DNA of 64,000 bases. It comes from an uncultured virus (IMG/VR IMGVR_UViG_3300042691_049071). Taxonomy: Duplodnaviria > Heunggongvirae > Uroviricota > Caudoviricetes. Position numbers and translations under genes: made by a program. The DNA is taken from IMG/VR virus record IMGVR_UViG_3300042691_049071; one strand, 5' to 3'. A model generated the notes under the pieces. That model was not told the origin of the DNA. It saw only the letters and a program-made list of their open reading frames with translations, and did no database searches. Position 1 is the first letter of the stretch; each line of letters starts with the position of its first letter. Below, one piece after another: positions 3,401 to 33,812 of this stretch.

Positions 3401-6400
3401 GCTTCTTTGTTGTATGCCTCAGTAATTGCTTGTTGAGCTTTGATTTGGAGGTCGCGATCAGCGGAGACGTTGGTGGCGATACTGATAAAGTTTTTAGCAA
3501 CCTCGTCAGCCCTTAAAATACCAGCTTCCTGCAAGACCGTAGAAGCCTCCAAGAGTTCAGTCATCTTTGTCTTGAATATCGCAGGGTCTCCCGCAGATCT
3601 AGCCAGAGCTTCTTCGGCGGCTTTATATTTTGCCGTTGACTGCTCAATCGCACTCCCGATGCGAGGTAAATCGATCGGAGCGATTTTGAGATCAACAGAC
3701 TTAAAGGCTTCTTTTAGTTTTGTGGCTTCACCGATCAGGTCTTTGGCTATTTGACTGCTAGCCTTCTTGTTACTCTCGATCTGCTGAATAATAGTATCGA
3801 TATCTCCAATTCTAGTGGCAATGTCTTCCTTCTTGGTCTCAATCGCCAACTCAGTTGCCTTGACAGCTTCAGCATCACCCCTCTCTTGAAGGACGTTCTT
3901 CTTCTGCTCCAGTCGGATCAGTTCTTCCTGTTCAGCAATTAGCTGGGCGAGTCCTTCTCTTTTTTGGAGGTTGATCTCCGCCCTTACCTTAGAAAGAGCA
4001 AGATCTTCGGCAGCGGATCTTGTTTGAATGTCGGATTCTTTTGCATTCGTCCCAGAAAGAGAGCCAAGTCCAGCTATGAATTTTTTGCCAAAGTCTTGCT
4101 CGTATTCTTTTTCCACTTCTGCCCTGATTCTTGCTTCGGGATCTACTGGAGTTGCTTGCAAGCTCCTGAGTTGTTGGAGCTTGGCTATCTGGCGATCATA
4201 AAGTTTCAAGGTAGGATCGTCAACCAAGATTTTTGGATCTCGAATAGCGTCAACATACTTCTGCCTAGCGATTGTTAGTTTATTAAGCTCGCCAAGCGCG
4301 TCTTTACCTTGGGACGCATTAAGAATATCAATCTTTTGTTTAGTGTCTTTAAGTGCGTTTCCAAGCCTCTCAGCCCCGTTCGCCACTGTCTTGTTTTGTT
4401 CGTCAATAAACCCGATATACGTGGTAATACCAGCAAACAGAGCCGTCAGTAGCAGGGTTGGTCCAACCTCCGCAATAACATTCTTGAATGAGTTGACAAG
4501 CCCCTTCGCTGCTTTTCTAACAGGGATGTCGAGCTGTTCGGCTTGAGCGCTAAGTCTTTGGATATTAGCGTCTATATTCTGAGCGTCTTTCCCTATCTTC
4601 TCCAGACTAGAACCGTTAGCAGATAACCCTGTACTCGGATCTATGGTTTTAGCTTCAGCAGCAAGGGCTTTTCGCTTTTCGTTAAAGGATTTTAATTCCT
4701 CTAGGGTTTTAAGCCTTTCAGCTCGATTAGGATCAATAAATTGCCCCGCTCTAACGTCTAATTCTTGCAAGAAGTTTCTATTACTTTTTTCTCCTTTTCC
4801 AGAAAGAGATGCAGCGATCGCCTTCCCAGTATCTTTTGCTTGAGCAACAGCATTCTCAAAGCCCTTCGAGACGAAAGCTCCTACATCAAAAGATCCGATA
4901 TTTCTAAGAGTTTTGCCTAGATCGAACTGACTGAGCTTTATCAGAGCAGAGTCGATTTTGCCCGAAAAAGCAAGAACCTGATCTCCCGCTTTTAGGAAGC
5001 TGTTTAGCAATCCAACTCCAACCGCATCCCTAATCTTTGCTAGCTGGGCTAGAGGTTTTTCTAAAACAAGTTGACTAAGTGGCGCTACCAGCTTCTGATC
5101 TTCGATGGATGCCTTAACCGCATTGACTTGGGCGATCGCGTATTCCCTTTGAACCTTTGCTATTTTGGAGGCTTCTGGATCTATATTGACATTTATCCGA
5201 GCCTCTTTTGACGCTCGAATAATATCCTTCTCAATTTCTTTCACCCTAAGCTTTGCTTGGGCTACATCCTTGTCTGTTATTAGTTTTTGAGGAATACTAA
5301 CTTCGGTTTTTCCTTCCCTAAACTCTTTGGATACTCTTGTCGCAGCCTCTTTTGCGTCTCTAGCTTGGGATGCCTTTTCCCTAAGCTCAGAAGCTCTGGC
5401 TAGATTGTTTTCCTGAATAGCTTTTTTTTCTTGAGCCAACAAACTTAGCTCTTCTTTTTTTGATTTAAGCGCTTCCCTTAAACTTGTTTGAGAAACCTCC
5501 TTTCTTAATCCTTCGTCCTTGGGCAGCAGTGGCGCTACAAAAGTCTTTGTCTTCCCCTCCTCCTTGGCTAAGCCCAAGATTTCTTTGAGGCTGTCGTTAG
5601 CTCTTTTAATCTTGGTGAATGTTTCTGAAATACCAGTACTCAGGGTTCCGATACTGTTGTTAACACCCTTAAAAACAGCAGAAAGCGTACCACCAAAAAG
5701 TTTTACTACGGCGATCGCTATTAAAAGCCCTCCAACTATCTTTTGAAAGGGGTTTGAATTCTCCCCAAAAGTAAAGAGTGGCAATATCGTGTCGCCAATC
5801 AACTTAAAGACGGGAGCTAATATAGCTCCAACGGTATCGGCAAACTTACGGATTGCTGCCGTCAAGTCCTGAATTATCTTTTGTAAGCCTTTGTTTTTCA
5901 GGATTAACTGATCTAAAAAGACAAAACCAACTCCAACCCCAGCCCCTAGCAGTACGCTATTAACAGCAAATTCCCTCGCCGCCGCACCTGCAAGTTGTAA
6001 GCTCTTAGCAAAGAGCGAGTTAGCTTTTTCAGCATTGCTGGCGACCCCAGTAAATTTAGCAAGTTGTTTTGAAGCGTCGTTGATTAAGGGCGCGAGGCTA
6101 CCAAAGATTTCGCTTTTTCCGACAATACGAGAAAGAACGAGTAAAGCCCCTGGCGCGCCAATAAACGCTTTCTCAAAAACGGTTTTTAAAGCGGGAAATG
6201 CTTGAGCAAGACCAGCTAACTTGATACCTAGCCCGCCGATTTGTGGAGCTAGGGAAACCAAGAACCCTGACAAAGGAGCCAATCCTCCCAGTAGTCCCTG
6301 CAACTGTTTCGTTGCGAAGCTTGCTGCCCCAGGTATCTTGTCTAAGTTAGCCGCAAAGGTTAAAAATCCAGCAGCACCTCTATTTCCGAGAACAGAAGTA

Positions 6401-9165
6401 AGGTTCAAGAACTGATTGAAGAGACTATTCGATCTCTTGTCAACTATAAACAGTAACTCACCGACCCCTGGAAGAATCTTGGACAAGAACCCAAAGCCTT
6501 GCCCTAGCCCCAATATTCCTGCCGACAATACTTTAGCTCCGACAGAAGCGGTAATAAATGCGCCGCCCAAAGGAGCCACCAGCTTAAAGATCTCAAGGAA
6601 AACCGCGATCGCTGGCTTAAGGATATTAATAGCAAAGACTACTGAATCTGAGAAGGCTGTAATAGCCCCCGCTAATGACTCCACCAAATACTCTGGAATT
6701 GCGCCAAAAAGCTGGGCTATGGGATCGCTTAAAGCCTTAAACAGAACAACAATCTTGTCGAAAGCTCGAAAGAAAATAGAAACCAGTTTCTCGACCTGTG
6801 TTGATATAACATCTTGGTTTGCCGCAAGAAATTTGTAAACACCGTCTAGCTCCTTAACGATGGGAGCTAAGAACTTAGCCCCAGCTTTGCGTCCAATCTC
6901 GTCAAATACCTCTTGGATGTTGCTCGTGATCCCTGATATCGTCTGGCTTGCGAGCTTGTTGCCAACCTTAAATGCTTCCAGCTTCCTGAGTAGTTCATCA
7001 ACAAAAGTCCCCTGCGCCTTCCACTTTGAGACCATCTCATTATTGATGCTGAGATTCTTCGCAAGCACAGAGTTTTGGTCGATAGTTCCTTGAACAATTG
7101 AGGTTATTTCTTGCCTTGCTTGGAACAAAGGCACTCCCAGAGTCCCTAGCGCCGCAGCCGTCGAGGTAACGATATTTGCGGATTGATCTAGATTTGCCCC
7201 AATCGAACTGGCTTGACCCGCGACGATTTGAAACAAATCGACGAGATCTTTTGAAGTTACCCCCACTAATTCCAATGAGTCTTTACGAATCTTCGCGATC
7301 GCGCCTTCAACCGCAGGACCAAGAGCCTGAATAGCCTTGGTTGGGTCGGATATTGTTACACCATTCTGGATAATACGATTCGTCGCAACGAGGCTGGCTT
7401 GTGTCGCTAGCAACTGTTCTTGAAGCCTTGCGTTTTGCCCAATTAATAACTGGAATGGCCCGTTCTGCACAAACCCCTGTAAAGCTTGCAATCCAAAAGA
7501 CAGGAAAGTAAGTCGCTGCGAAACCTCAAAAACAGCGTTGGTCGCTTTACTCGCACCCGTCTCTAGCAGTTCAAATAGTTCTAATGGTTCTGTAGCGCCA
7601 GCGATCGGATCTGACACCAAAGAAACTAAGCTGATTGGCTGAACAAGCTTCTGGGGTACTTGAGAAATCTTTTCTAGGCTACCAAGTACAAACGCATCAA
7701 TGTTATCGAGAACACCTGTAATTTCTTCAAAAACAGCAGCGCGAAAACCTTCAGCAAAGCTAGAAGCAGCTTTATTCCCCGCGAGAGTCAGAGCTTCGGT
7801 AATGCCGCCGCCAAGGAACTCGTCTACCTGAGCTATATATTCAGCGATCGCGCCACCACCTTTAATACTGTCAAGCCCAGCACCAAGCCCGTCATCAAAG
7901 CCTTTAGCTAGATCCCTTGAAGTCTTTTTGAGGGGATCTAAAATCCCAACAGAGAAAGTCGCTGCATCAATTCCGATTAGCTTCTTTAAGTTGTCTTTCT
8001 GGGCATTAAAAGCGGGCGCAACAACAAGATCAAATACCGCATTAAGATCGTCGTCTAAAAGATTTCTCCTAATATTCCTCAGATTAGAAAAAGCCGTCTC
8101 TACAAGAAAATTCCCCGCCGCTTGGAGTTCATTCTTAGAAGTTACCTGTGCAGCCCCTCTTAACTTGGTGGCAAGCAGCTTGCCGATAGGCAGGTTCCCT
8201 TTTTCTAAAACGTCGGGGAACCTCTGTCCAAGTCGATCAATAACATCGCCCAAAGCGCCGCCAAGTTGAGCGTCTATCTCCTTAAACTCTGCGCTTGCAG
8301 GGGTTCTTTCACCTAAAACGGCTTGAGCTACCTTTTTCCCAAATGCGTTAGATAGTTTTGCGCCAGCTAACTGGGCTGATTCAAGGTTCGGGGTTAACTC
8401 TCCAACTGCCAGTTCTCTAGCAGCTCCGACAACCGATCCTTGAGCGAGCTTCCCAGCTACTCCACCCAATAGGTTTGACTTCCCCGCCGCTTGAATCGAT
8501 TGAACGATCTTTGAAGTTAAATTCACCCCAAAAACACTACCTAGTGCAGTATCGAGGGCGCTAGGTAGTGTTTTGCCTACAAATCCCGATAACAGTGTTT
8601 CTGACAAGGAACTGTCTAGCTGTGCCGACAGTGAGTCGATACTCACACCTAGTTTTGACTCAAAAGCGGTAGCAAGATCGGAGTTCTTAATTTTTTGTTC
8701 AAGTGTCTTTGAGAATGTGTCGGCAGTCTTGATGACGACATTTTCAAGCTGCTTGCCCATTACCGCAGGATCAAAAAGCTGAATAGTACTACTTGAGGAT
8801 CTAGAGGTAAAACCCGAACCAAAATCCTTAGAGACCCCTGAGACCTCTTTGACTAACACCGAAAGCCTTGCGGTCTTGTTTAAGGCTTCGTCCGCAGCGG
8901 TCGAAAGCTGTTGAATTAGTGTTTGACCAACTGGAGTGTCTAGCGCCGATCGCACTGACTGAACAGCATCGCCAAGCAACCCTAGCGACTTTATGCCCGA
9001 TACGGAAGTTGCAAGTAATGCTCCGCCGAAAGCTGTTATTTTTCCCTGAGCAAACTGTGCTGCCGCTCCCGCAGTTCCAAGGGAGTCGCTTAATACGCCA
9101 ATAGTCTTTGAGGCTTGATCCTTGGCTTGGATTAAGATTTCGACAACATTTGTCTGCGGAGCCAT
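475..9165 (-). CDS. Tail tape measure protein (~2900 aa)
   Basis: N-terminal VEILIQAKDQAS; Ala/Gly/Leu-rich helical body with a TMP core (..QARQEITSIVQG..) followed by long coiled coils. ATG at 9165 preferred over TTG at 9177. Confidence 0.85.
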   Translation of the reverse strand: MAPQTNVVEILIQAKDQASKTIGVLSDSLGTAGAAAQFAQGKITAFGGALLATSVSGIKSLGLLGDAVQSVRSALDTPVGQTLIQQLSTAADEALNKTARLSVLVKEVSGVSKDFGSGFTSRSSSSTIQLFDPAVMGKQLENVVIKTADTFSKTLEQKIKNSDLATAFESKLGVSIDSLSAQLDSSLSETLLSGFVGKTLPSALDTALGSVFGVNLTSKIVQSIQAAGKSNLLGGVAGKLAQGSVVGAARELAVGELTPNLESAQLAGAKLSNAFGKKVAQAVLGERTPASAEFKEIDAQLGGALGDVIDRLGQRFPDVLEKGNLPIGKLLATKLRGAAQVTSKNELQAAGNFLVETAFSNLRNIRRNLLDDDLNAVFDLVVAPAFNAQKDNLKKLIGIDAATFSVGILDPLKKTSRDLAKGFDDGLGAGLDSIKGGGAIAEYIAQVDEFLGGGITEALTLAGNKAASSFAEGFRAAVFEEITGVLDNIDAFVLGSLEKISQVPQKLVQPISLVSLVSDPIAGATEPLELFELLETGASKATNAVFEVSQRLTFLSFGLQALQGFVQNGPFQLLIGQNARLQEQLLATQASLVATNRIIQNGVTISDPTKAIQALGPAVEGAIAKIRKDSLELVGVTSKDLVDLFQIVAGQASSIGANLDQSANIVTSTAAALGTLGVPLFQARQEITSIVQGTIDQNSVLAKNLSINNEMVSKWKAQGTFVDELLRKLEAFKVGNKLASQTISGITSNIQEVFDEIGRKAGAKFLAPIVKELDGVYKFLAANQDVISTQVEKLVSIFFRAFDKIVVLFKALSDPIAQLFGAIPEYLVESLAGAITAFSDSVVFAINILKPAIAVFLEIFKLVAPLGGAFITASVGAKVLSAGILGLGQGFGFLSKILPGVGELLFIVDKRSNSLFNQFLNLTSVLGNRGAAGFLTFAANLDKIPGAASFATKQLQGLLGGLAPLSGFLVSLAPQIGGLGIKLAGLAQAFPALKTVFEKAFIGAPGALLVLSRIVGKSEIFGSLAPLINDASKQLAKFTGVASNAEKANSLFAKSLQLAGAAAREFAVNSVLLGAGVGVGFVFLDQLILKNKGLQKIIQDLTAAIRKFADTVGAILAPVFKLIGDTILPLFTFGENSNPFQKIVGGLLIAIAVVKLFGGTLSAVFKGVNNSIGTLSTGISETFTKIKRANDSLKEILGLAKEEGKTKTFVAPLLPKDEGLRKEVSQTSLREALKSKKEELSLLAQEKKAIQENNLARASELREKASQARDAKEAATRVSKEFREGKTEVSIPQKLITDKDVAQAKLRVKEIEKDIIRASKEARINVNIDPEASKIAKVQREYAIAQVNAVKASIEDQKLVAPLSQLVLEKPLAQLAKIRDAVGVGLLNSFLKAGDQVLAFSGKIDSALIKLSQFDLGKTLRNIGSFDVGAFVSKGFENAVAQAKDTGKAIAASLSGKGEKSNRNFLQELDVRAGQFIDPNRAERLKTLEELKSFNEKRKALAAEAKTIDPSTGLSANGSSLEKIGKDAQNIDANIQRLSAQAEQLDIPVRKAAKGLVNSFKNVIAEVGPTLLLTALFAGITTYIGFIDEQNKTVANGAERLGNALKDTKQKIDILNASQGKDALGELNKLTIARQKYVDAIRDPKILVDDPTLKLYDRQIAKLQQLRSLQATPVDPEARIRAEVEKEYEQDFGKKFIAGLGSLSGTNAKESDIQTRSAAEDLALSKVRAEINLQKREGLAQLIAEQEELIRLEQKKNVLQERGDAEAVKATELAIETKKEDIATRIGDIDTIIQQIESNKKASSQIAKDLIGEATKLKEAFKSVDLKIAPIDLPRIGSAIEQSTAKYKAAEEALARSAGDPAIFKTKMTELLEASTVLQEAGILRADEVAKNFISIATNVSADRDLQIKAQQAITEAYNKEAQKRIATIDVQQAKIQALLATGKISESEASVLTGKNEIDKIDAQFEAEKKSFEARKVIRERNAKEQQEQIERDRLIAEAQVAAATGDPSKIEALRKQQAPALDQKISSLNTDLKAEKAKKDSLDQINKSGLGTAETVRQFNEVSVSVSNLEKQIIGITTQKGKLDDVLKLSEGSQKDLDDVTAQLGGTSKALAEARAERGRLQKAVERGNTTTLSPSETKDLFKDPRVVAAAKRGQFFDINKIVEERRNAANKKVAELEAQEKAQQARKEQIENILKKNPEAEAAGRASLAASKKASADASAIAIAQRKEDERRFAEVEQKAAADRAKAQAEEALRTLDFRIKETLQAEKVGETQRLAQIAQLRKSGVKLESEIKLQEAAERKRSITLELQLEQQKQKQIEDLKKKGVGVSRETENANRLKVAELTKQLAEAELAAIEGLVSAVRDRLVLEAQKYAVTIEQQNLKLERQKLLFTALEKSLENQSRLSESANKLAQSTVALRESEFSALNKIYDRQQAAIRKAGGEGNFADLELEERKLILAEKLAVLKLNSLKQQQKFEAESLEREIQKRDLLLERKKVENDIAIAKKKVDIASQDAAIKAAELEVKLRPQSEEAKLKLAQAKLGQEKNFLELGGLQQEKGFIADEAKVNEIVNKNDRQALANKQQGETNTAIGDVIGATRNPALQERLQREQLARLTQNTGTAALTTTDVSNAVAAASQPVNVRGTSFRNPTSALLGQVEQGGVFTAAPEPKPNNAPFATSFEELAKKYPDKGVAGSFEELNKKYPAQANSFEELNAKYGGKPTEEAKPEQTIISSFDKLIQQIDEGFSKVLVAPDLKVKDLTAGLEAEFNRVSKQISENPVTLKIDDKAFEEAQKKLDKPIALLDEAQLQRAEALAQAFGSLGGKDLVPQQQGNPTGAALGTSGNITVNAPIAINTQSNISSAAGVGNDVQKAVNDTLNNVLRRVAGVTSGVR

Positions 9166-9200
9166 AAGAATAACCAAAAATAGTCTTCTTGGTTATTCTT
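9166..9200. promoter_or_regulatory. 12-bp perfect hairpin directly upstream of the tape-measure ATG
   Basis: AAGAATAACCAA (9166-9177) / TTGGTTATTCTT (9189-9200). Confidence 0.55.
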
Positions 9201-9564: not shown

Positions 9565-9617
9565 TGTTTTTACGATTTCTTTGTGGCATTATAGCGCGAT
9601 CGCTAACGACGTTTTCA

Positions 9618-10247
9618 CTATCTTGCGATCAGTATTCGCAAGCGATAAGAATCTTTCTTTTGCTCTGAACTGGAGCTAGGCTTGTTATTCCTTACCAAGT
9701 TAGCCACGTATTTTTTCTCGAAATCGGACTCCAGCTTTGTAAACTCTCCTCCTATCTTTACTGCGTACAACTGAGTTTTTGGCATACTTGGCAACGGGGT
9801 AAAACCTTCTTTTTCGTAAATACTTCTCCTTTTCTCTCCAGCGTCATCCTTATCATAGGGAGAACACCTGATCACGCAGTCTTCTGGAAGTAAATCTAGG
9901 TGTTCTTTAAAAGCGTTTTTTGATATTTTTATTATTTTTTTAGCGGTACTTGAATCCATACCCCCTTTTCTATCAAAAGACTCGTTAACTTGAAACCCCA
10001 TTTCGTATATAGGACTGCCCTCTCTTTCACCTCTTTTTAAACTCCCAAATGTAATAATCGCAGATCCTGCACTACCCACTGTGTAAACACTACCATTGTC
10101 TTTGTGTTTGTAAGTAAAAGAGTTGTTTTTCGTATCTACCGAAGACAACTGAAAACCCCATCTAGGAACTATCTGTTTCGCAAAAAACATTTTAGTCGCT
10201 CCAACTAGATCTTTCGCTTCTTCCTTTCGCTTTTTTGGGATATTCAT
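9618..10247 (-). CDS. Hypothetical protein with GNAT-like C-terminal motif; probably the 3' part of a split gene starting at 10732
   Basis: RRSIYEKEGF resembles GNAT motif B. The frame is open upstream to 10481 without an ATG. Confidence 0.55.
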   Translation of the reverse strand: MNIPKKRKEEAKDLVGATKMFFAKQIVPRWGFQLSSVDTKNNSFTYKHKDNGSVYTVGSAGSAIITFGSLKRGEREGSPIYEMGFQVNESFDRKGGMDSSTAKKIIKISKNAFKEHLDLLPEDCVIRCSPYDKDDAGEKRRSIYEKEGFTPLPSMPKTQLYAVKIGGEFTKLESDFEKKYVANLVRNNKPSSSSEQKKDSYRLRILIAR

Positions 10248-10573
10248 TTTGTCGATAATCGCGTCCGCTTTTTCTCCCTGCGATATTGATGCTTGGTAGG
10301 CAGAAAGCAGAGCAGCATCTGTTATTTGATACTTTTTATCAAGAGCGTTAACACCGATATAAGAAGTCGCTAAAGCAGCCGCAACTCCAACCCCAGTTGC
10401 AGCACCTCGGAGTTTAATATTGTTGGTCTTCTCCGTGTTATTACCAAAAGATACGTCAACCGATTTTCGTGTCGCTTTACTTTATAAAGACTCGCCTTCG
10501 CTCTTTTTTGCCGCGATCGCCGCCGCGCCACCAACCAAAGCCGCAGTACCTAGCCCTACACCAATATTCCGAG

Positions 10574-10732
10574 CTAAATCACCAGCAGCCTTCTTTCGCC
10601 AATCTTCTGACAGGCACTCCCACGCTGGATATACCCCTGTTTACATTTAATTTTCTTGCCGCTGTCACGGCGCAAAACTACAGATACCTGTCCTTCAAGG
10701 TAGGCTAAATCGTTGGCTAAATCCCCCGTCAT
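10574..10732 (-). CDS. 52-aa ORF absent from the ORF track: leader module of the putative cargo-protein family
   Basis: Manual translation MTGDLANDLAYLEGQVSVVLRRDSGKKIKCKQGYIQRGSACQKIGERRLLVI*. ATGA overlap with the upstream stop. Confidence 0.6.
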   Translation of the reverse strand: MTGDLANDLAYLEGQVSVVLRRDSGKKIKCKQGYIQRGSACQKIGERRLLVI

Positions 10733-11061
10733 TTTTTACTCCGCTTCTTGATTATCTTGCTAATAGCCTTAGCGCCACTCGCGGCTCTAGATTCAACTTT
10801 ACCCGTGGCACGACCCGCGTTAAATATGGCTTTCCCCGTATTTAACTTCCCCTTCAAGCCGTCCTCGTCCTTGTTGGTAAGTTTAGCGATCGCCACAGCA
10901 GTCAGCCCAGTAATTACACCACGACCAACTGCGCCAGCAACGCCTTTGATAATTCTGCCGACTTTACCTTTGCTGCAAGTAGCGCCTTGAGGGATACAGT
11001 ACGTTTGTCCGTCTTCGCCTTGGCATGGTTTGCCGCGATCGCATGTTGTGTCTAATCTCAT
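10729..11061 (-). CDS. Small basic protein with RLD + Cys knuckle + Gly/Ala helix (putative head cargo)
   Basis: MRLDTTCDRGKPC...YCIPQGATC; overlaps neighbouring genes at both ends. Confidence 0.75.
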   Translation of the reverse strand: MRLDTTCDRGKPCQGEDGQTYCIPQGATCSKGKVGRIIKGVAGAVGRGVITGLTAVAIAKLTNKDEDGLKGKLNTGKAIFNAGRATGKVESRAASGAKAISKIIKKRSKK

Positions 11062-13691
11062 GGAGTTTGTTTCCTCGCTTTACGGCGCTGAGTTAATGTG
11101 GCATTGAGTTTCTTAGCGATCGCGTCAGCAGCATCCACCGAGAGGTAGTCCACCCAACTACCATTGGAGCCAGTGAAATTGTCGGGATTTTTACCCCTAA
11201 AAGGAGTCCGACTCCAGAGATCTCCATCTGACCAGAGATCAGTTTTTGGAGTCTTCAGGATATCTCCGTCTGGCTTCTTGGAGTCCGCCTTATCTCCGCC
11301 AAAACCTAGTTCGGGAGTTCCCAGTGTTACGAGGTGGATCTGCTTGGCGATGTAAGAGCCAGAAACATTGCCCTGAGAACCGACTTTTTGCATGGACTCC
11401 AAGATATCCAAGGCTCTTTTTGCTGTCTCGCCGCCTTGCTTTAGTCCAACAATAGCGATCGCGGGATGCTCTGTCGTATTACCACCGTAAGTGGAGTTGC
11501 CAATCTGGTAAAGCTCCGCAGCTAACCTCACCGCCTCGGGGTCTCTACCCGCCTTGAGGGACTTACTCATTACGGCTTCGTAACTCTTCGCCATCGTGTC
11601 GATAATGCCCATAACCCGACCTTTCGACTGCGGTGGAAGGGTGCGATCAAAAGCGATTACATCGCTCTGGCCATACATATCGCGATCAGTCTGGTCTTTG
11701 ACTTTTTTGCTGTTGTCGGTAATTGACTTGGCTACGTTACTGCTAGGGGTTTCACCATCACCAATAGCCACGATTACTTGGGGTTTTGTCGGTGCAGGGG
11801 ATGTTGTGCCGCCACTGGCGACGATGGCTTGGGCTTCAAGCGCTGATCTTTGGATATTGTCATTGTATTTAACTCTAGCAAGGACTGCTGCACCTACCGT
11901 GGTTTGCGCCAATACAGCCGCAGCGCTAATAGTGGCAGCAGTGGGATTATCCTTGTATTTGTCACCAATAGCGGAAGTCAGGTTCCACAGTTTCCCAAGC
12001 GCGGGGTTTACAGTCTTCAGCAAAGTCCCTGTTGCCTCAAAGACCTCTTTCTTTGACTTATCGCTAGACTTACTTCCCGCAACAGAATTAGAAAAGAAGC
12101 CAAAAGTTTCTCGAATTTTGTCCCTGACTGCGCCATTCGTCAAGTAGTCCTCAATCTCATGCCCTTTTACCGAGCTAACAAACTGGGCAAACTTCTTGGG
12201 TAAAATCGAGAAGGGGTCGTTCTTAGACGTGATAGTGCGGTTATTGATATTTGCCCAGTTCTTATCGTCCTGAGTTGTGCCACCTGTTAGCCCAAAGGAT
12301 ACTCCTCCGAGTCGAGCAATATTGAGTCGTTTCAGTACTTCGCCGCCGTCAATACCTTTGGGCGGTTTGATTCGACTAAGAATCTCCGCAGCCTCGTCAA
12401 CGACATTACCTCCAGAGCCGTGGCTAACCACGTTTAGAGGCTTATCGCGATACTTGGAGCCATAAGCATATAGCTTGGAGGCTAAGTCCACCGCAGCCTC
12501 GTTCCTGCCACCCACGGCATTGCTTAAATATTTGCCAAAACTTTCCTTGGCGACATACCCCAAATACAAGGGATTGTAGTTGCCATTCTTGTCTTTTTGT
12601 TCAATGTTCGTGGGCGGAACATTGAACTCAGTGTTGTTAAAAGGAATGATTTCCTGAGTCTTGTTAAACCATTGCTCTCGCTTTGATGTATCCAGAGGGG
12701 TTTTCAGGTATTCAGCAACCTTGTCACCCGAAGATCCAAGGTTAGAAAATCCACCCACAGCAAAGGTAATTTGAGGCTTGCTTGTTGACTCGATAGGAGT
12801 GGTTTGCGCTCTTTGGTATGCCATTAGCGCCGATTCGGGCAATCCTTCCTTGTAGCGATCGCGAGCCGACATCATTACCGACGAAGGAATGCCCAATAAA
12901 ATACTTGCCGCCAATATCCCTGCCGCAGGACGATTATCGCCAAAGAACTTACTAACCTTCTCAATATCTTTCCAAGCACCAGCTACGGGTTGAGGTAATA
13001 AACTCTTAAGAGCTTTCTTGTTTGACTCCGCACGGTTTAACCCTTCTCGGACAATCTTTTGGCGATCGGGGTTGGCTTTTTGCAAGCGAATTGATTCGCG
13101 TAGCTGGGATTGGCTCATGTACGAGTAGCGATAAACCCCACGTTTACGAGCTTCATCTTTTAATTCGCGGATGTTTTTGTTATCTAATTCATCCTCAACA
13201 GGGGCAACGCCGACGAACTTAGCTTTTTGGACCTCGTTTACCGCATCATTCAGATCTGAAATTTCTTGCCTATTTAAAGCTTCGGGTACGTCAATACGAC
13301 AGGTATCGGTCTTGGAGATGCAGGCTCCCTTACAAGACAGCCCAACTTTACAGTTTTTAGGCTTAGAAATTTTGTCAGCACGCTGTCCAATATTGTTTGC
13401 ATACGCAAGTAAGTACTGATCTGCGTCAGTATCTACTGCATCAGTGCGTCCATCCAGTACTTGCTTGTATTCAATGTGATCGCCTAGCACCAGTCGAATC
13501 AGCTTGCGATCCTTATCGTCATCGCGAAACAGGCAGGTAATTAGCCCGTCATCGCCAATATTGATGTTAACAATCTGATCGATGCTCCCGTAAGCGCGAG
13601 AAATAATGCGAGTCAATAGTCTCGCGATTACCCTTCTAGCTGCGAGTGGATCTGTGTTTTGAATTACTGGTGCTGGTGCGATCGCGTACAT
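11058..13691 (-). CDS. Large putative virion protein: Cys knuckle, Rho-N/HeH-like motif, two alpha/beta-hydrolase-like domains
   Basis: RADK..CKVGLSCKGACISKTDTC; NIRELKDEARKRGV..SQSQL. Repeated domain: LNVVSHGSGG..RLGG..SKNDPFS..GH, then IAIVGLKQGG..LVTLGTP..SDGDLWS. Confidence 0.7.
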   Translation of the reverse strand: MYAIAPAPVIQNTDPLAARRVIARLLTRIISRAYGSIDQIVNINIGDDGLITCLFRDDDKDRKLIRLVLGDHIEYKQVLDGRTDAVDTDADQYLLAYANNIGQRADKISKPKNCKVGLSCKGACISKTDTCRIDVPEALNRQEISDLNDAVNEVQKAKFVGVAPVEDELDNKNIRELKDEARKRGVYRYSYMSQSQLRESIRLQKANPDRQKIVREGLNRAESNKKALKSLLPQPVAGAWKDIEKVSKFFGDNRPAAGILAASILLGIPSSVMMSARDRYKEGLPESALMAYQRAQTTPIESTSKPQITFAVGGFSNLGSSGDKVAEYLKTPLDTSKREQWFNKTQEIIPFNNTEFNVPPTNIEQKDKNGNYNPLYLGYVAKESFGKYLSNAVGGRNEAAVDLASKLYAYGSKYRDKPLNVVSHGSGGNVVDEAAEILSRIKPPKGIDGGEVLKRLNIARLGGVSFGLTGGTTQDDKNWANINNRTITSKNDPFSILPKKFAQFVSSVKGHEIEDYLTNGAVRDKIRETFGFFSNSVAGSKSSDKSKKEVFEATGTLLKTVNPALGKLWNLTSAIGDKYKDNPTAATISAAAVLAQTTVGAAVLARVKYNDNIQRSALEAQAIVASGGTTSPAPTKPQVIVAIGDGETPSSNVAKSITDNSKKVKDQTDRDMYGQSDVIAFDRTLPPQSKGRVMGIIDTMAKSYEAVMSKSLKAGRDPEAVRLAAELYQIGNSTYGGNTTEHPAIAIVGLKQGGETAKRALDILESMQKVGSQGNVSGSYIAKQIHLVTLGTPELGFGGDKADSKKPDGDILKTPKTDLWSDGDLWSRTPFRGKNPDNFTGSNGSWVDYLSVDAADAIAKKLNATLTQRRKARKQTP

Positions 13692-13692
13692 A

Positions 13693-14907
13693 TTATTTAC
13701 CCTTCCGAGGAATACGTGTATAAATCAAACGAGAAGGAGTCGATTCGTATTTCGCGCCTTTAGCATTCCCGGATGTTTCTCCAGTTCCTTTTCTGCGATT
13801 CATTTCTTTGTAGGCTTCGAGAATAGCTTGATGCCTCTCCTCGCCCCTTTCGTCAATTTCCTTAATAGCAGACTCCAGCAGTTCCTTGCCTTTCAGCCCC
13901 TCAGATCTCTTTTTTGTTAAAACCTCTTCATCTAGTTTCATAGTCGCTATCTTCAGCATCTTTAGCTCATTCGAGGTCTGTCTGTTCATTTCTATCCCTG
14001 CGAAATAGCGACTAGACGGGTATACAACCTTAGAAGTCCTAGTTTTTGTCCCTTGCTCCCCAAGGAACTCCCCTTTTCTGGCTCTAAGGCTATACATGTT
14101 TTTTGCGCTGGTAGCCCTAAACTCCGTGAGACTGTTAAACCCCATTTTTTGCTGCTTTTCCAGTAGAACGAAGTCTTGCGCTGAAAGGGTTGCGTCTAGG
14201 GGGTGATTGTGAGTTATAACGCTAATATTTTTCCTTTGCCCGAATGGGAATAGCTTTGCGTAGTCCGTGAGTCCGTACCCAAAACCAGCCCTGCTTCCTC
14301 CTCTGATTATCAGAGGTTTACCCTCCTTATCAAAAGCGTATACCGTCTCAAAATCGTTGTCTTTAATTCGCGCCTCCGCAGCAGCTACGCTCAACGCTAA
14401 CTCTGGGTTCATATGTTGGTATGATTTTTTCAATTCATTAGGAATGCCGTCTTTAGCCAACTGCTCGCGATCTTTCTTGAACTCGGAGAACGCCCTGATA
14501 TCCGCAGTCTTCTCTCTGACAACCTGTAGTCCGATCATTCCGCCCACACCCAAAGACAGATATCTTCCAACAGGTATTTTCCTTGTTTCTTGTGGAGATA
14601 GTTTTTCCGCGATCGCCTCTTGAACACCTTCGATCTTCGGCGGCACAAAAGCTGGGGATTGCAGTCCTCTTCGGTTGGACTCGCTTCTTCTCATGGCGAT
14701 CGCCGCTAAACCAGCCAAACCAGCAGCAGTGATCGCGCCTCCAACACCCGCCACAACTTTCCGAGAAGGTCTCCGCGAAGAACCAGCTTCACCTTCCGCA
14801 CCTTCGCGAAAGTAGGAGTAGGCTTTCCGCCCCTGAGTAGCAGGGACTTTCACCTCTTTTCGGGCATCACTACGGATTATTTTTGATAAAGCAGCGATCG
14901 CGTACAT
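13693..14907 (-). CDS. Putative virion protein with JAB/MPN-like domain
   Basis: FETVYAFDKEG...ITHNHPLDATLSAQD fits E..HxH..S..D. N-terminal leader shared with 14910-16511. Confidence 0.65.
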   Translation of the reverse strand: MYAIAALSKIIRSDARKEVKVPATQGRKAYSYFREGAEGEAGSSRRPSRKVVAGVGGAITAAGLAGLAAIAMRRSESNRRGLQSPAFVPPKIEGVQEAIAEKLSPQETRKIPVGRYLSLGVGGMIGLQVVREKTADIRAFSEFKKDREQLAKDGIPNELKKSYQHMNPELALSVAAAEARIKDNDFETVYAFDKEGKPLIIRGGSRAGFGYGLTDYAKLFPFGQRKNISVITHNHPLDATLSAQDFVLLEKQQKMGFNSLTEFRATSAKNMYSLRARKGEFLGEQGTKTRTSKVVYPSSRYFAGIEMNRQTSNELKMLKIATMKLDEEVLTKKRSEGLKGKELLESAIKEIDERGEERHQAILEAYKEMNRRKGTGETSGNAKGAKYESTPSRLIYTRIPRKGK

Positions 14908-14909
14908 GA

Positions 14910-16511
14910 TTACTTCTTAGCCTTTTTACGGTTTGCCTCGTCTTCTTCCTTCTTTGCTGCCATAGCGCCCAAGGCTAATACCCCCGCAGCAGGGGTTAGT
15001 GTAGCAACCGTATTTGCAGCGATCGCGCCACCAATGGACATACCTCGACCATGACCGCGTTTACGCAGCGCCCGATAAGTGCCGCTACCGATTGGGCCAG
15101 CTAAGGACTGGACTGCACCACCACCAAAGGCTTTCGCGGTTTCGCCTAAGCAATTCTTCTCTTGAGGGATGCAAACCTTGCCGCAAGACTTACTCCCTGA
15201 GCCGCACTTTGCATCTTCACGGATCTGCTCAACAAGGCTGTCGATTCGCATGTAAACGGAATTATTTCTCACTTGCTTATCCTCTGGTTTAATAAAATCT
15301 TTGGGACCAAACTTGGTCTTTGGACGACCGAGTTTCCTCTTTCCACCTTGAGGCAGGGCCTTAATGGTTATACCTCCAAGCTTTCTCTGAACCTTGCTAG
15401 GTTCTTTAACCTCTTCGGCTTGCACGTCATTCGCTTTGTTCTCGACAAAAGTGCTGTAAAAACTTTGGGCGAAATTAGCGACAGACTCAGCCGCCGATCG
15501 CGTACCTTGACCAGCCTTATAAGCAGCAGACTTGGCTACCGATCGCGTCTTTTGACCAGCTTTATAAGCCAACTGATTCACATCATATTCTTTGTCGGGT
15601 AGCGAGGATATACCGCCAGCTTGTCGATCGCGCTCCCATCCTTCCCTGCCCTTACGGACAAGTCTGCCTAGCGCAGCACCAGCAGAACCTGAGACTTTCG
15701 TTAGTAGTGTTTTTTGTGGTTTAGCGATCGCACTCCCACTATTCTCACCCGATTCACCCGCAGTAACAGTTAATCCACCAGTAGACACCTTGGGTGCAGG
15801 AGGATTGTAAGGCAATCGGGTTAAGGGAGGAGGTGTAGCGGCTTCAGGTTTGTTGACAGGGACTAATGCCCCACCGACTTGTACTTTTGGTTTTGGCGAT
15901 GGTAGGCGATCGGGGGGAGCTGGTCTATTACCTTTTATTACGGCTTGCCGAATCGATTCATCTGTTTTATCACCACTCATTCGCGGGGCATCTTCAAAAT
16001 CGGTGAGCTTTAGCGGCTCTCTCTCTGTCGTTTTGTTTTTCTTTGCCGCTTTACGCTGTTCATACGCTTCTTCCTCCGCAGCATCCTCTGCCGCATACCT
16101 AGCTCGACGGGCCTCGCCACTCTCTTCAGGTTTCTCTGTAATTTTTGAAACCGCCTTTTTGACCGCAAAAGAAACGGCTTTATTTACAGCTATACTTCCC
16201 GCAAGTGTAGCTACAGTCTCGCCAGTCCTGATCGCAGCTTTCTTGGCAAACTCACCAACCCGACTCGCGGTGGACTGAGGTGCTACAACAGGAGCGGGAA
16301 CCTCAACTGGTGTTCGTAAGGCTTTTGATTCTTCTGGCTTCTTCCTCATCGCGATCGCTGCTGCCCCCAATCCACCCAAGGTAAGTGCAGCGCCAATACC
16401 CGCAGCACCTTTCTTCGCTATTCCGACATTGCGATAATACGAATAAGCCTTACGCCCATTTTGTGCTGGGACTTTTACTTCTACCTGTGCATCTAATCTG
16501 TCAGTACTCAT
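14910..16511 (-). CDS. Low-complexity putative virion/cargo protein with leader modules at both ends
   Basis: N-term RLDAQVEVKVPAQNGRKAYSYYR + Gly/Ala helix. C-term REDAKCGSGSKSCGKVCIPQEKNC + Gly/Ala helix. Confidence 0.7.
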   Translation of the reverse strand: MSTDRLDAQVEVKVPAQNGRKAYSYYRNVGIAKKGAAGIGAALTLGGLGAAAIAMRKKPEESKALRTPVEVPAPVVAPQSTASRVGEFAKKAAIRTGETVATLAGSIAVNKAVSFAVKKAVSKITEKPEESGEARRARYAAEDAAEEEAYEQRKAAKKNKTTEREPLKLTDFEDAPRMSGDKTDESIRQAVIKGNRPAPPDRLPSPKPKVQVGGALVPVNKPEAATPPPLTRLPYNPPAPKVSTGGLTVTAGESGENSGSAIAKPQKTLLTKVSGSAGAALGRLVRKGREGWERDRQAGGISSLPDKEYDVNQLAYKAGQKTRSVAKSAAYKAGQGTRSAAESVANFAQSFYSTFVENKANDVQAEEVKEPSKVQRKLGGITIKALPQGGKRKLGRPKTKFGPKDFIKPEDKQVRNNSVYMRIDSLVEQIREDAKCGSGSKSCGKVCIPQEKNCLGETAKAFGGGAVQSLAGPIGSGTYRALRKRGHGRGMSIGGAIAANTVATLTPAAGVLALGAMAAKKEEDEANRKKAKK

Positions 16512-16992: not shown

Positions 16993-17241
16993 TTAAGGAG
17001 ATACAACCATCCAGTCGTCGGACAAAAGATCTGTTTGGGAGGCAAGCCAAGGTACTAAACTTCTTGGAGCATCCAGATTGTCGGATTGTAAACCAGTAGT
17101 GTCGATATAGATATACGGGTGGGTCATTTTTGAGTGTGCATCGGGACGCTGAATCTGAATAAAGATACCTTTGCCGTTCCAACCCGTTCTGGCAACCTTG
17201 CCACCCGATTTAATAGCTTCCAAAGCTTCGGAGAATGTCAT
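16993..17241 (-). CDS. tad2: DUF2829 / Tad2-like anti-defence nucleotide sponge
   Basis: MTFSEALEAIKSGGKVARTGWNGKGIFI...PYIYI...VPWLASQTDLLSDDW matches the DUF2829 signature. ATG at 17241 has a GAGG RBS. Confidence 0.85.
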   Translation of the reverse strand: MTFSEALEAIKSGGKVARTGWNGKGIFIQIQRPDAHSKMTHPYIYIDTTGLQSDNLDAPRSLVPWLASQTDLLSDDWMVVSP

Positions 17242-17263
17242 TGTGTCCTCTTTAAATAATAAC

Positions 17264-18820: not shown

Positions 18821-19732
18821 TTACAATCCGTGTAGCCAGAGTACGGAGTAGGGACGCTTGATAATCAAGCCACCATATTTCATGCGAGCGGTGCGTTGCA
18901 TACCACGAGGTAGCTCAATCCACTTCTTGAAGGAGAAAGGCTCCGTGATACGGAACTTGATTTTGTTCGGGTCGCGCTTGTAATAGCAAGCAACGTTAGA
19001 ACCGCCATCACCAACACCTTCGAGGGGGAGTAAGGGCATTACATCCTTGATGTAAGTTGCCTTGCTGAGGTAGTAGTCGAGGACAGAATCGCTGTTGAAG
19101 TCACTGAGACGACGGAAGCTGATTTCGTCGTGAGTTGCTTGGGCAAACAAGATGGTGTCAGGAGTCTCGATATTACGAGTCAAGCGACGCATCGAGTTGC
19201 CAGTATCGTTCAACACTGCGAGCATCTGAGCGACAGTAGTAGAACTGTTGAAAGCGAATGCCGAGTAGGACTTCAGGGTGTCGGGGTGGTTGAAGAAGCC
19301 ACGCAGTTGACCGTCACCAAGGAATACCATCTTGTCGAGGTATTGCTGACCTGCTTCAAGCACGATCTGGACTTTTTCTGCTTCAATGCTAGTACCGAAC
19401 TTCTGGGAAAGCTCGATCTCTTTGTCATTGAGAGTGTAAGCACCGATATGCTCAGAAACTCTTTGGCGGAATTCTCTCGACACGATCTCAACGTTGGGAA
19501 CGTGGGTGGTGTAGTCGCGAGCAGCTTCCCACCGACCGATACCTGTTACCTTGCGATAGCCAGTTTCTTCGAGTTCGGGTTTATTCCAGTCTTCGCGAGG
19601 AATGAGAGTACCGTTCGCCCAGTAAAGCTGTTCGTACTCTTCTTTTTCGAGGGTCTGTTCTAGTTCAACGAGCTGCTCCTTGAAGTAGCCCACTGACCAG
19701 TCATCATTTTTGATTTCAGTAGCTGTAGTCAT
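18821..19732 (-). CDS. Major capsid protein, DUF2184/HK97-like
   Basis: VFLGD..LRGFFNHP, ETPDTILF, CYYKRDP, YGGLIIKRP. AGGAG RBS before ATG 19732. Follows scaffold and decoration genes. Confidence 0.85.
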   Translation of the reverse strand: MTTATEIKNDDWSVGYFKEQLVELEQTLEKEEYEQLYWANGTLIPREDWNKPELEETGYRKVTGIGRWEAARDYTTHVPNVEIVSREFRQRVSEHIGAYTLNDKEIELSQKFGTSIEAEKVQIVLEAGQQYLDKMVFLGDGQLRGFFNHPDTLKSYSAFAFNSSTTVAQMLAVLNDTGNSMRRLTRNIETPDTILFAQATHDEISFRRLSDFNSDSVLDYYLSKATYIKDVMPLLPLEGVGDGGSNVACYYKRDPNKIKFRITEPFSFKKWIELPRGMQRTARMKYGGLIIKRPYSVLWLHGL

Positions 19733-19742
19733 TGAACTCCTC

Positions 19743-20615
19743 CTAGAAGTTTGCGTAAACTTTGACAACCCTGTTGTTGTTGATGTCGGTTACAACATCC
19801 GAGCGGAAACTAGCGCGGGTCGAAGCATCGATCGCGCTGTTCGCATTGGTCTTCTGGGCGTAGCCCTTAGAACCAGCAGCAACAGAGATAAACACGGTAT
19901 CGGACTCAGCAATGCTGGTTTCCAAGGTAGGAACCCAAATACCAGAGAGATCACCCAATCGGCGTTGAACGTCAACAGCTAACTGGTTAGCTTCATAAGC
20001 CGTAGTTGCCGCAGGTCCAACTTGATCCTTTTGAACGGAAGTGTTGAGGCGGGTAATACCGCAAATAGCGGTAATTGCGTCACCACTATTGGGGAGGCGA
20101 ATACTGCCGCCGTTGAGGGTTCCAGGTACGCGAGGGGCTGCACCAGCAATCTTGGTGACAAACAAGCCAAAACCAATGCGAGATGGACTTGCCGCCGCTG
20201 TGGTTGGAGTGGTAGGCACGGTCAAAGGTGCTGCACCACCACCGCCAATCGTGACGAACATTGGAGTGTTGTCTTTGCGGTGCGTGAAGACCAAGGTGGA
20301 GGTGTTGTTTACTACCGAGGCAAGCTGGCTAGCACGAAGGTTGGCGCGGAAAGCATTAAACAGACCTGTGGCTAGATCAGCACGAACAGTTGTAGTAGTA
20401 GTAAAGGAAATGGTGATTGGGCTGGAGGAAGTTTCATCATCGTAAAGAGTGATGGTGTACACGGTAGCCGTAACAGGGGTTGCGGGGGTTGTAACCGTCC
20501 ACACTTCCTTAACATAGCCACTGTCGTTGTGATAGGCTTCAACGGAACCTACGCCCATGCCCTCAACCATTCCAGCGAGAGCCTGTGTGTAATACTGGCG
20601 ATAAACTTTTTGCAT
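19743..20615 (-). CDS. Capsid decoration/cement protein
   Basis: Lies between scaffold and MCP; ALAGMV..IGFGLFV..GIWV motifs; Thr-rich insertion. Confidence 0.7.
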   Translation of the reverse strand: MQKVYRQYYTQALAGMVEGMGVGSVEAYHNDSGYVKEVWTVTTPATPVTATVYTITLYDDETSSSPITISFTTTTTVRADLATGLFNAFRANLRASQLASVVNNTSTLVFTHRKDNTPMFVTIGGGGAAPLTVPTTPTTAAASPSRIGFGLFVTKIAGAAPRVPGTLNGGSIRLPNSGDAITAICGITRLNTSVQKDQVGPAATTAYEANQLAVDVQRRLGDLSGIWVPTLETSIAESDTVFISVAAGSKGYAQKTNANSAIDASTRASFRSDVVTDINNNRVVKVYANF

Positions 20616-29848: not shown

Positions 29849-29958
29849 GATTCAGATCTGAATACGTTGCCCGATAATAAGCGATCGCTAAATTAACTGC
29901 ATTCAAAATTCCCGAAGACGCGATCGCTACAGTTGCGGTATTTAGTAGTGCGACCATT

Positions 29959-31835: not shown

Positions 31836-31873
31836 GTGGCGATCGCTAATACGGGTAATTCGTTTTTTGCTTT

Positions 31874-31907: not shown

Positions 31908-31917
31908 ATTGAGCCAA

Positions 31918-33293: not shown

Positions 33294-33296
33294 TAA

Positions 33297-33809: not shown

Positions 33810-33812
33810 TAA

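Follow-up and report, generated by a model that had tools for sequence, protein, structure and literature searches.

The array and its genes

An array of genes at positions 9618-16511 (minus strand) of the uncultured virus record IMGVR_UViG_3300042691_049071 (IMG/VR) is described here, whose proteins repeat a short connector module in front of differing payloads. The window, i.e. the whole stretch of DNA that was analysed, is 64 kb long, and scans of its open reading frames (ORFs) and of family libraries identified it as phage DNA with structural and replication genes. Its minus strand carries the portal, MuF, a Mu-G-like morphogenesis protein, a DUF2213 protease-scaffold, a cement-like protein, the capsid protein, a DUF4054 connector and a protein of 2900 amino acids (aa). 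The major capsid protein (MCP) is nearest to those of Aphanizomenon phage vB_AphaS-CL131 (CL131) and Planktothrix phage PaV-LD, with 34% identity, and the window is classed as a CL131/PaV-LD-like phage of filamentous cyanobacteria. IMG/VR holds two near-identical contigs (L002 and L003, >99.9%) and two relatives ranked by MCP identity, L004 (95%) and L005 (91%).

The array, flanked on one side by connector genes and on the other by the tape measure gene, consists of g533, g404, g877, g110 and a broken gene (9618-10732). Six copies of the module are present, namely at the N- and C-termini of g533, in g404, g877 and g110, and in the broken gene. The features of the array, together with two further genes that the initial annotation had drawn into the same family, are as follows.

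14910..16511, minus strand: g533, two modules joined by a long basic low-complexity linker
About 16398-16502, minus strand: N-terminal 0-Cys module of g533, with R-L-D-A before it; hydrophobic helix 16347-16403
15150-15206, minus strand: 4-Cys knuckle of the C-terminal module of g533, with tandem R-I-D-S / R-E-D-A; hydrophobic helix 14970-15026
13693..14907, minus strand: g404, 0-Cys module at about 14776-14874 with R-S-D-A; hydrophobic helix 14698-14754
About 13711-14418, minus strand: JAB/RadC-like payload of g404, HNHP motif near 14197-14211
11058..13691, minus strand: g877, a conserved N-terminal domain of ~80 aa, then the module
13299-13352, minus strand: 4-Cys knuckle of the g877 module, with R-T-D-A
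About 13092-13175, minus strand: HeH/Rho_N-like stretch of g877, after the module
About 12057-12794, minus strand: hydrolase-like domain 1 of g877, hydrophobic helix 12870-12926 before it; lacks the GxSxG serine
About 11112-11774, minus strand: hydrolase-like domain 2 of g877, hydrophobic helix 11880-11936 before it; lacks the GxSxG serine
10729..11061, minus strand: g110, a bare cassette without enzymatic payload, with M-R-L-D and a basic tail
10975-11043 and 10885-10941, minus strand: 4-Cys knuckle and amphipathic Gly/Ala helix of g110
9618..10732, minus strand: sixth cassette, broken; 2-Cys module 10592-10723 with knuckle 10610-10645, helix 10509-10565 in another frame
9618-10247, minus strand: GNAT-like payload of the sixth cassette, an ORF of 209 aa
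29279-29848, minus strand: g189, weak N-terminal 2-Cys knuckle; C-terminal R-I-D-S and aromatic helix
27037-29295, minus strand: g752, degenerate module, two hydrophobic helices and HeH; R-Y-D-A and C-x7-C

The motifs quoted in the initial annotation all lie where they had been placed, the variant EVKVPA..GRKAYSY being located at the N-termini of g533 and g404. No family was found in Pfam, PHROGs or NCBIfam for g110, g404, g533, g877 or the 209-aa ORF, and in the Pfam scan the MuF domain (PF04233) was absent from the array proteins.

The connector module

The module is composed of an aromatic helix, one or two R-x-D-(A/S) motifs, a basic mini-knuckle with 4, 2 or 0 Cys, and a Gly/Ala-rich hydrophobic helix. 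The part that keeps its register runs from R-x-D through 2-5 mostly basic residues to the knuckle and on to the hydrophobic helix. Three knuckle variants can be distinguished: C-x2-G-x2-C-x3-C-I-x5-C, C-K-x-G-Y-x-x-R-G-x-x-C, and the Cys-free V-P-A-x-x-G-R-K-A-Y-S-Y. A fixed-register profile of the region upstream of R-x-D gave no conserved columns beyond R-x-D itself, and the aromatic helix was assessed by loose patterns only. The helices that follow the knuckles have Kyte-Doolittle means of 1.5-1.9 over 19 residues; taken together, the helices are only moderately hydrophobic (means of 1.5-2.1).

In an all-against-all BLASTP comparison only two pairs stand out, the N-termini of g404 and g533 (E = 9e-14), and g110 with the C-terminus of g533 (E = 0.003). 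Two profile hidden Markov models (HMMs) were built, A1 from 22 module segments with no CL131 sequence among them, and A2 from CL131-type proteins only, without the lineage of the window. A1 finds the modules of CL131 gp044, gp045, gp047 and gp048, eight clear ones and one weak, with 98 bits for the five stretches of gp048 and 26-31 bits for each of the others. Applied to the 1454 six-frame ORFs of the window, A1 returns six instances, all in 9618-16511, a search that is circular for the window's own segments (best reversed-sequence control E = 1.6). A2 ranks the C-terminus of g533 (E = 3.4e-6), g877 (0.0086) and g110 (0.0091) as the top three of the same 1454 ORFs, with a best reversed control of 0.054, and misses the 2-Cys and 0-Cys variants there. 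The proposal that the leader motifs align was thus borne out at the profile level, the modules being recovered by A1 and A2 with reversed-sequence controls at E of at least 0.05, and the module in 9618-16511 is confirmed as a profile-level entity. The reuse of shared parts, which had been claimed for 27037-29848 as well, holds within the array, and its extension is weakly supported: A1 detects g189 at E = 0.02 and does not detect g752.

Spread and shuffling of the module

Among 1.84 billion proteins, A1 matches 177 representatives at E ≤ 1e-3 and 30 at E ≤ 1e-10, the matches reaching 3641 aa with seven matched stretches. Many of these relatives carry 2-7 modules. Of the long module proteins (n = 120), 69 begin with a module within the first 30 residues and 90 hold at least two, with a median inter-module spacing of 378 residues. 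CL131 gp048 (1811 aa) contains five modules. Along these lines, what is fused in one relative is found as a separate gene in another, as a comparison of the window, L004, L005 and CL131 reveals: the C-terminal module of g533 is a separate gene of 148 aa in L005, while L004 has a sixth gene with two modules and a 571-aa protein with the order module, JAB, module, tail. The module in front of the JAB-like payload is of the 0-Cys kind in the window and of the 2-Cys kind in L004. The comparison supports one module that is reused before differing payloads and shuffled among close relatives. Of the modular leader envisaged in the initial annotation, the reuse before polymorphic payloads has stood, whereas the leader is not simply N-terminal, since the module is also found internally and C-terminally, with up to seven copies per protein; it is better described as an inter-domain connector.

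The interior of the array holds no long DNA repeats, only short matches around GCGATCGC, so that long nucleotide repeats of this genome offer no explanation for the shuffling of payloads. The palindrome GCGATCGC, the HIP1 signature of cyanobacteria, is present in 129 copies in the whole window against ~1 expected. It is located exactly at the starts of g877 and g404 (13678-13685 and 14894-14901), which is why both proteins begin with M-Y-A-I-A.

A different group of matches carries the knuckle by itself. About 38 of the 150 matches listed are short proteins, many with signal peptides, that have a bare 4-Cys knuckle without R-x-D, and the same holds for four proteobacterial genome loci (L016-L019). 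This bare knuckle reads C-x2-G-x-P-C-G-x2-C-I-x5-C-H, often in two copies (e.g., P0100, P0121, P0155 and P0067), and its carriers are small signal-peptide and Cys-rich proteins of proteobacterial metagenome-assembled genomes. None of 25 short knuckle proteins matches a Pfam family at E ≤ 1e-4. As bare 4-Cys knuckles occur without R-x-D in such signal-peptide and proteobacterial proteins, the knuckle is a mini-fold of wider distribution. A search with P0053 returned no viral locus; the loci were retrieved with the narrower alignment A2 and are biased towards CL131-type knuckles.

Payloads

The payload of g404 conforms to the JAB/MPN metal-site motif E...H-x-H...S-x-x-D. In an alignment of 10 sequences (A4), E83, E92 and T-H-N-H-P (137-141) are invariant, and S152 and D155 are present in at least 90% of the rows. 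An AlphaFold2 (AF2) model of g404 reached a mean pLDDT (predicted local distance difference test) of 64, with 76-97 in the core. Its best Foldseek match was RadC (2qlc, E = 4.1e-3), none reaching 1e-3, and VIA-align returned Z 6.7 for JAMM1 (root-mean-square deviation (rmsd) 4.0, 112 aligned) and Z 6.3 for RadC; JAB/MPN chains account for nearly the whole top 50, every Z being below 8 and too low to stand alone. An assignment of g404 as MuF/minor-capsid-like, suggested by ESM Atlas clusters (TM about 0.5), served as a lead only and was set aside, as its own model matched JAB/RadC.

The 209-aa payload of the sixth cassette was modelled with a mean pLDDT of 78. The best Foldseek match had E = 2.6e-3, and VIA-align gave Z 7.1 for AAC(2')-Ia (rmsd 4.0, 127 aligned), with GNATs making up almost all of the top 50 and every Z below 8. 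One near cluster in the ESM Atlas (score 0.90) has Acetyltransf_1 in 17% of its members, and G137, R140 and G148-F149 are conserved in the corresponding alignment (A5). No usable PDB match came from sequence searches with g404, with the family profile of g877 or with the GNAT-like protein that is intact in L005.

For g877 there was no Pfam, NCBIfam or PDB sequence match. It is homologous to residues 1286-1759 of CL131 gp048 (E = 8e-45), both of its hydrolase-like domains being homologous to gp048 hydrolase domains. The elbow consensus of the g877 family is H-G-x-G-G with no conserved Ser and departs from G-x-S-x-G; in CL131 gp047 and gp048, G-H-S-A-G is found in three domains, and the C-terminal domain of P0027, equivalent to that of g877, matches DUF676 (E = 2.9e-6). 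In homologues of g877 the HeH/Rho_N-like stretch scores at or near the Pfam cut-off for Rho_N, and g752 has a Pfam HeH domain. Of the payloads named originally, the JAB-like, GNAT-like and HeH assignments persist at modest strength, while the tandem alpha/beta hydrolases turned out to lack the Ser nucleophile.

A Pfam scan of 105 long module proteins at E ≤ 1e-4 revealed DnaJ (13), LRAT (15), lipase and other alpha/beta-hydrolase families (15), kinase-type domains (5), LPD1 (2) and ART (1); at least 23 of the first 51 proteins were without a family. InPase and LRAT, as well as RelA_SpoT and ART-PolyVal below threshold, come in addition from homologues of g877. InPase lies above the Pfam cut-off in P0013 and P0017, and LPD1 is found in P0142, P0143 and L024. 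Mixed payloads within one polypeptide are represented by P0015 (hydrolase-like, LRAT and GNAT-like) and P0024 (LRAT and HipA-like). Further payloads are low-complexity basic regions in the window and Tle3-like domains among the relatives. No zincin-like metallopeptidase was found at the thresholds of the family scans, which gave one sub-threshold Peptidase_M90 match, in L024.

Natural polymorphism of the sixth cassette

In the window the sixth cassette is split into a 52-aa ORF (10574-10732) and the 209-aa ORF (9618-10247), the frame shifting near 10597 and a TAA following near 10483, whereas L003 has an intact ORF of 371 aa. The TAA is unique to the window; a sense codon takes its place in L002, L003 and the contigs of 4/4 public runs compared. 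The A-run near 10593-10597 is one base shorter, and thereby frame-breaking, in the window, L002 and two runs, and is intact in L003 and the two remaining runs. The comparison covers contig consensus sequences, which hide minor variants, and shows the sixth cassette to be naturally polymorphic. With the short allele, translation of the GNAT-like part alone, lacking the connector, could still begin at an ATG of its own (10247).

Positions 9600-11100 of the window are present nearly whole (word share 0.93-0.98) in contigs of 20 public runs from 9 studies. These are mostly freshwater or lake metagenomes; three runs (X1, X2 and X5) are labelled 'fungus metagenome'.

Virion presence of the CL131 homologues

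ORF044-048 of CL131 are syntenic with the array and carry the module before JAB, coil and GHSAG-hydrolase payloads. According to the proteomic data in Table S5 of PMC6293099, all five were detected through liquid chromatography-tandem mass spectrometry of CsCl-purified virions. The peptide-spectrum matches (PSMs) reported there amount to 9 for ORF044, 123 for ORF045, 11 for ORF046, 24 for ORF047 and 175 for ORF048, the latter with a sequence coverage of 54.6%, to be compared with 110 for the tape measure protein (ORF049), 86 for the capsid protein (ORF040) and 90 for the protease-scaffold (ORF038). By published mass spectrometry the homologous module proteins of CL131 thus belong to the virion, as had been expected of proteins of this kind. 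Through this homology the array proteins of the window are probably virion-borne as well.

R-x-D as a candidate prohead-protease site

The structural genes to which the following refers are listed here.

20628..22124, minus strand: DUF2213 prohead protease fused to a scaffold-like region, with 11 R-x-D-(A/S/G) motifs; the proposed module-cutting enzyme
19743-20615, minus strand: cement-like protein (Pfam/PHROGs)
18821..19768, minus strand: major capsid protein of PF09950/DUF2184 type (Pfam/PHROGs)
475..9177, minus strand: g2900, without module, homologous to the tape measure proteins of CL131 and PaV-LD
26330-27073, minus strand: MuF, a separate gene and the sole Pfam Phage_Mu_F match
37270-38919, minus strand: portal, part of a split minor-head-protein set

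In the DUF2213 protein of the window R.D[ASG] occurs 11 times against 0.86 expected, an enrichment of ~12-fold that 0/300 shuffles reach; among the other 52 ORFs of the window only g533 is enriched (3 against 0.40). PaV-LD ORF071 shows 12 against 0.86. In an unbiased count of gapped residue pairs, R.D comes out on top in 6/9 DUF2213 proteins, among them that of Xanthomonas phage DIBBI (L021; 11 against 2.2 expected), and K.D is the top pair in the T1-like Shigella phage SH6 (L020; 11 against 3.7); in CL131 and a Vibrio phage R.D does not stand out in this count. The R-x-D sites keep their position across DUF2213 proteins of about 26-45% identity. On the side of the modules, [RK].D lies at most 25 residues upstream of the 4-Cys knuckle in 149/153 cases, the first residue being R in 136, and two R.D motifs 3-12 residues apart are found in 66/164 modules compared with 8/817 background windows.

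It had been suggested that the array proteins are processed at R-x-D, and the enrichment of the motif in the protease-scaffold of the window, in PaV-LD and in 6/9 DUF2213 proteins renders it a plausible prohead-protease site. The counts also hint at a family-wide [R/K]-x-D cleavage specificity of DUF2213 proteases; no experimental cleavage site was found in the literature on DUF2213, as judged by titles and the beginnings of abstracts. Because cleavage after R-x-D would leave both the knuckle and the hydrophobic helix on the mature payload, these two elements are unlikely to be a removed packaging tag. The piece in front of R-x-D cannot itself be the tag either, as it may be as short as 4 residues (M-R-L-D).

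The C-terminal third of the scaffold (within 20628-22124) holds a conserved stretch, D-L-S/T-x-R-x-D-S/A-Y-x-x-G, which is also found in CL131 gp038, PaV-LD ORF071 and L009. It resembles the aromatic helix D-S-x-Y-L-E-G before many modules, and the two may represent a shared docking element.

Gene context: head or tail

All phage-like loci that were retrieved combine the module with a head of the DUF2213/DUF2184 type, as had been anticipated. A second, more distant lineage was found with P0085 (20 IMG/VR loci), in which module ORFs are placed between portal/MuF and the DUF2213-cement-MCP genes in 5/5 loci showing both module and DUF2213. In L024 the gene order is portal, MuF, module + DnaJ, a 1517-aa multi-module protein, module + LPD1, two module proteins, a kinase-like protein and DUF2213, and in L036 a 1412-aa multi-module protein with a terminal ART domain directly precedes DUF2213, cement and capsid genes. 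PaV-LD ORF061 and ORF065 each adjoin a MuF-like ORF, and in L009 a module is located between InPase-like and MuF ORFs. The portal-MuF fusion of CL131 has Y-R-A-D-A at the junction of the portal and the g189-like domain, and it shares an InPase region and a C-terminal region with module proteins. g2900 matches the tape measure protein of CL131 (gp049) at E = 1.5e-127, whereas the array proteins do not match gp049, and no tape measure match was found among the 163 proteins from the module and g877 searches.

The portal, g189, g752 and MuF correspond to successive parts of one fusion in PHROG 220 and CL131 gp012 and are separate genes here (26330-38919), a plus-strand block (29959-36571) separating the portal from g189. 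Three further genes of the neighbourhood may be mentioned. A Tad2-like (anti-Thoeris) gene at 16993-17316 (minus strand; Pfam E = 3.8e-23) is surrounded by head-tail connector genes, a short way upstream of the array. A plus-strand ORF of 634 aa (23107-25011) interrupts the minus-strand structural genes, with a marginal ParB-like PHROG match (E = 6.8e-4) and no significant stretch. An IS200/IS605-type transposase-like gene (44824-46008, minus strand; PHROG 506, E = 2.7e-118) lies within the phage.

Proposed function and its alternatives

With somewhat more confidence than doubt, the array is read as a set of cassettes for head-packaged, protease-processed and ejected virion effectors of the polyvalent-protein type. 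The proteins would be built into the prohead together with the portal/MuF set and cut after R-x-D by the DUF2213 prohead protease, the motif being abundant in its own scaffold region. Basic fragments comprising knuckle, hydrophobic helix and payload would be retained in the head with the DNA and ejected at infection. The hydrophobic helix might then hold the payload at the host membrane or help it across, which is the least supported step; its moderate hydrophobicity would suit a protein that has to stay soluble in the capsid. Recombination at the connectors would shuffle the payloads. The payload repertoire (DnaJ, LRAT, lipase-type hydrolases, kinases, ART, InPase and LPD1) is typical of injected effectors. 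The module and its spread, the diversity of its payloads, the presence of CL131 homologues in virions, the enrichment of the motif and the gene contexts are observed; head location, cleavage at R-x-D, ejection, membrane anchoring and a packaging-tag role are inferred.

Several observations weigh against this reading. The hydrophobicity of the helices is borderline for a membrane helix, and Gly/Ala-rich hydrophobic helices are also typical of tape measure proteins. The CL131 protease is only weakly enriched in R.D[ASG] (3 against 0.46-0.50), and a Vibrio phage DUF2213 protein shows no R.D enrichment. The residue after R-x-D is A/S/G in only 85/149 modules and K or R in 40, and R-x-D could instead belong to the structure of the knuckle. 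As the nucleophile is missing from the hydrolase-like domains of g877, not every payload is an enzyme. Finally, the tape measure gene follows directly downstream of the array in the window, as it does in CL131 and in Nostoc prophage-like loci, and 8/8 loci found with the CL131-type knuckle have the two side by side; tail genes are usual in the position of the array.

This gene order, between head-tail connector and tape measure genes in the window, CL131 and 8/8 cyanophage-like loci, also speaks for tail-associated proteins, i.e. proteins located in or at the tail, for membrane penetration or as accessories of the tape measure, that insert into the host envelope by their hydrophobic helices, elements which tape measure proteins possess as well, and whose lipase- and LRAT-type domains breach membranes; lipase, Tle3-like and LRAT payloads are indeed common. 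A tail location is nevertheless considered unlikely. The second lineage has its module proteins between the portal/MuF and protease/capsid genes with no tape measure gene nearby, no module protein resembles a tape measure protein while some share domains with the portal-MuF fusion, and R-x-D is common to the modules and the prohead protease-scaffold. Cytoplasmic targets are suggested by the J-domain, kinase, ART and GNAT payloads, and the PSM counts for CL131 in PMC6293099 are high for lumen cargo.

It can also be argued that polyvalent proteins of this kind are delivered whole and uncleaved, the module serving as a stable linker and recombination joint with R-x-D as a part of the knuckle fold. 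In the passages of PMC5512222 dealing with them, polyvalent proteins, N4 vRNAP for instance, reportedly enter the head without processing; the bare 4-Cys knuckle of small proteobacterial signal-peptide proteins is an autonomous mini-fold, the residue after R-x-D varies, and the coverage of CL131 ORF048 (PMC6293099) extends across the protein. The secreted knuckles are, however, without R-x-D, which is therefore not needed for the knuckle fold, while the 0-Cys and 2-Cys variants keep it. Moreover, R-x-D is strongly enriched and conserved in position in a scaffold region that has no knuckle, and gene boundaries coincide with module starts; delivery without cleavage is accordingly rated as rather improbable. 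That the array proteins are no virion cargo at all, but membrane proteins that the infected cell produces, e.g. for exclusion, for lysis or to remodel its envelope, would agree with the hydrophobic helices and with the fact that the proteomic data come from CL131 and not from the window's own phage. Yet the CL131 homologues are abundant in purified virions (PMC6293099, in its tabulated counts), the array genes reside inside the structural operon on the same strand, and g877 is homologous to CL131 ORF048, which makes this explanation very improbable.

Beyond the preferred reading of head-packaged effectors, a more far-reaching view can be put forward tentatively: the connector may be a self-contained unit for loading, cutting and anchoring, such that any domain placed behind it would be delivered. 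The aromatic helix would dock the cargo to the scaffold or shell, R-x-D would be the DUF2213 release site, with a [R/K]-x-D specificity extending to T1-like and other phages, and the knuckle and Gly/Ala helix would carry the released effector into or across the host membrane. Such a unit would account for J-domains, kinases, lipases, ARTs and GNATs being shuffled freely, and likewise for naturally occurring on/off alleles, where the GNAT-like payload loses its connector through a change of one base.

Implications and comparison with known systems

The first minutes of infection are decided by injected phage proteins, of which detailed knowledge exists for only a few model phages. In the present case a whole clade of cyanophages seems to use one simple connector for the delivery of an exchangeable set of effectors. 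Their hosts, among them Aphanizomenon, Planktothrix and Nostoc, are filamentous cyanobacteria that form blooms. If this holds true, the module would provide a sequence signature for virion-borne effectors in viral dark matter, with 177 representative clusters matching already, a testable cleavage motif for the widespread and uncharacterised DUF2213 prohead protease family, and a candidate for a natural means of packing proteins of choice into phage heads.

In this context one should recall bacteriophage T4, whose internal proteins bear a short N-terminal capsid targeting sequence ending in a protease site with an acidic residue. These basic proteins are packed with the DNA and injected; the tag, which works through the scaffolding core, is removed, and the T4 prohead protease cuts scaffold and cargo at one short acidic motif. 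In the array, by contrast, the piece before R-x-D may consist of just M-R-L-D, and the module is also found inside proteins. T4 Alt is an ADP-ribosyltransferase, as mentioned in the passages on it in PMC5512222.

In SPN3US and phiKZ many internal head proteins are cut by one prohead protease at A-X-E (PMC10052503). In SPN3US scaffold and cargo alike are cut at this motif. As described in the relevant passages, the three-residue motif places an acidic residue ahead of the cut and favours a small one behind it, as proposed here, several motifs are found per propeptide, and the protease also cuts itself. On the other hand, that protease belongs to another family, the SPN3US substrates lose N-terminal propeptides, and the cleavage at R-x-D is proposed from motif counts; these passages describe no repeated connector with knuckle and hydrophobic helix. 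The MuF polymorphic toxins (Jamet et al. 2017, PMC5576092) likewise combine variable effectors with a head-associated carrier encoded beside portal and head genes. The carrier is the MuF domain in the toxins outlined there, whereas the array proteins are devoid of MuF, which is the separate gene at 26330-27073. The Dar system of phage P1 (DarA/Hdf/DarB; PMC12810830) comprises head-internal proteins, some of them very large, that bind the capsid interior and DNA and leave with the DNA, much as proposed here; no sequence relation to the array was found, and no connector module is shared.

The closest parallel is offered by the polyvalent proteins (Iyer et al. 2017, PMC5512222), which the survey's passages portray as large multi-domain effectors of phages and conjugative elements, encoded among portal, MuF and capsid genes and predicted to be head-packaged and injected. 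By the same passages, RadC/JAB, GNAT, ART, InPase, RelA/SpoT-like and LPD1 domains are shared with the module proteins, as is extensive mosaicism. Unrelated effector domains in one polypeptide are found in g877 and its relatives, most cassettes of the window being single genes; signature domains are represented by InPase and LPD1 of the relatives and by the RadC-like fold and motif of g404, with no Pfam family in the array proteins of the window. The array differs from the polyvalent proteins, as those passages present them, in that every payload stands behind one conserved connector (R-x-D, Cys knuckle and hydrophobic helix). It also differs in that cassettes are often separate genes, and in that processing is proposed by the prohead protease, no zincin-like peptidase having been found. 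The words cysteine, transmembrane and Zn-ribbon are absent from the main text of PMC5512222, and neither the connector nor the R-x-D logic or the cassette-per-gene layout turned up in the passages and term searches of that paper that were covered. No prior description of the module was found in the literature searched, which is not proof of its being unpublished. In PMC5512222 polyvalent proteins are stated to be scarce in cyanobacteria, a gap in that survey which the array, if its reading is correct, would fill. The connector appears to be undescribed, and the system to which it belongs accords with the polyvalent-protein theme, with which it has domains in common.

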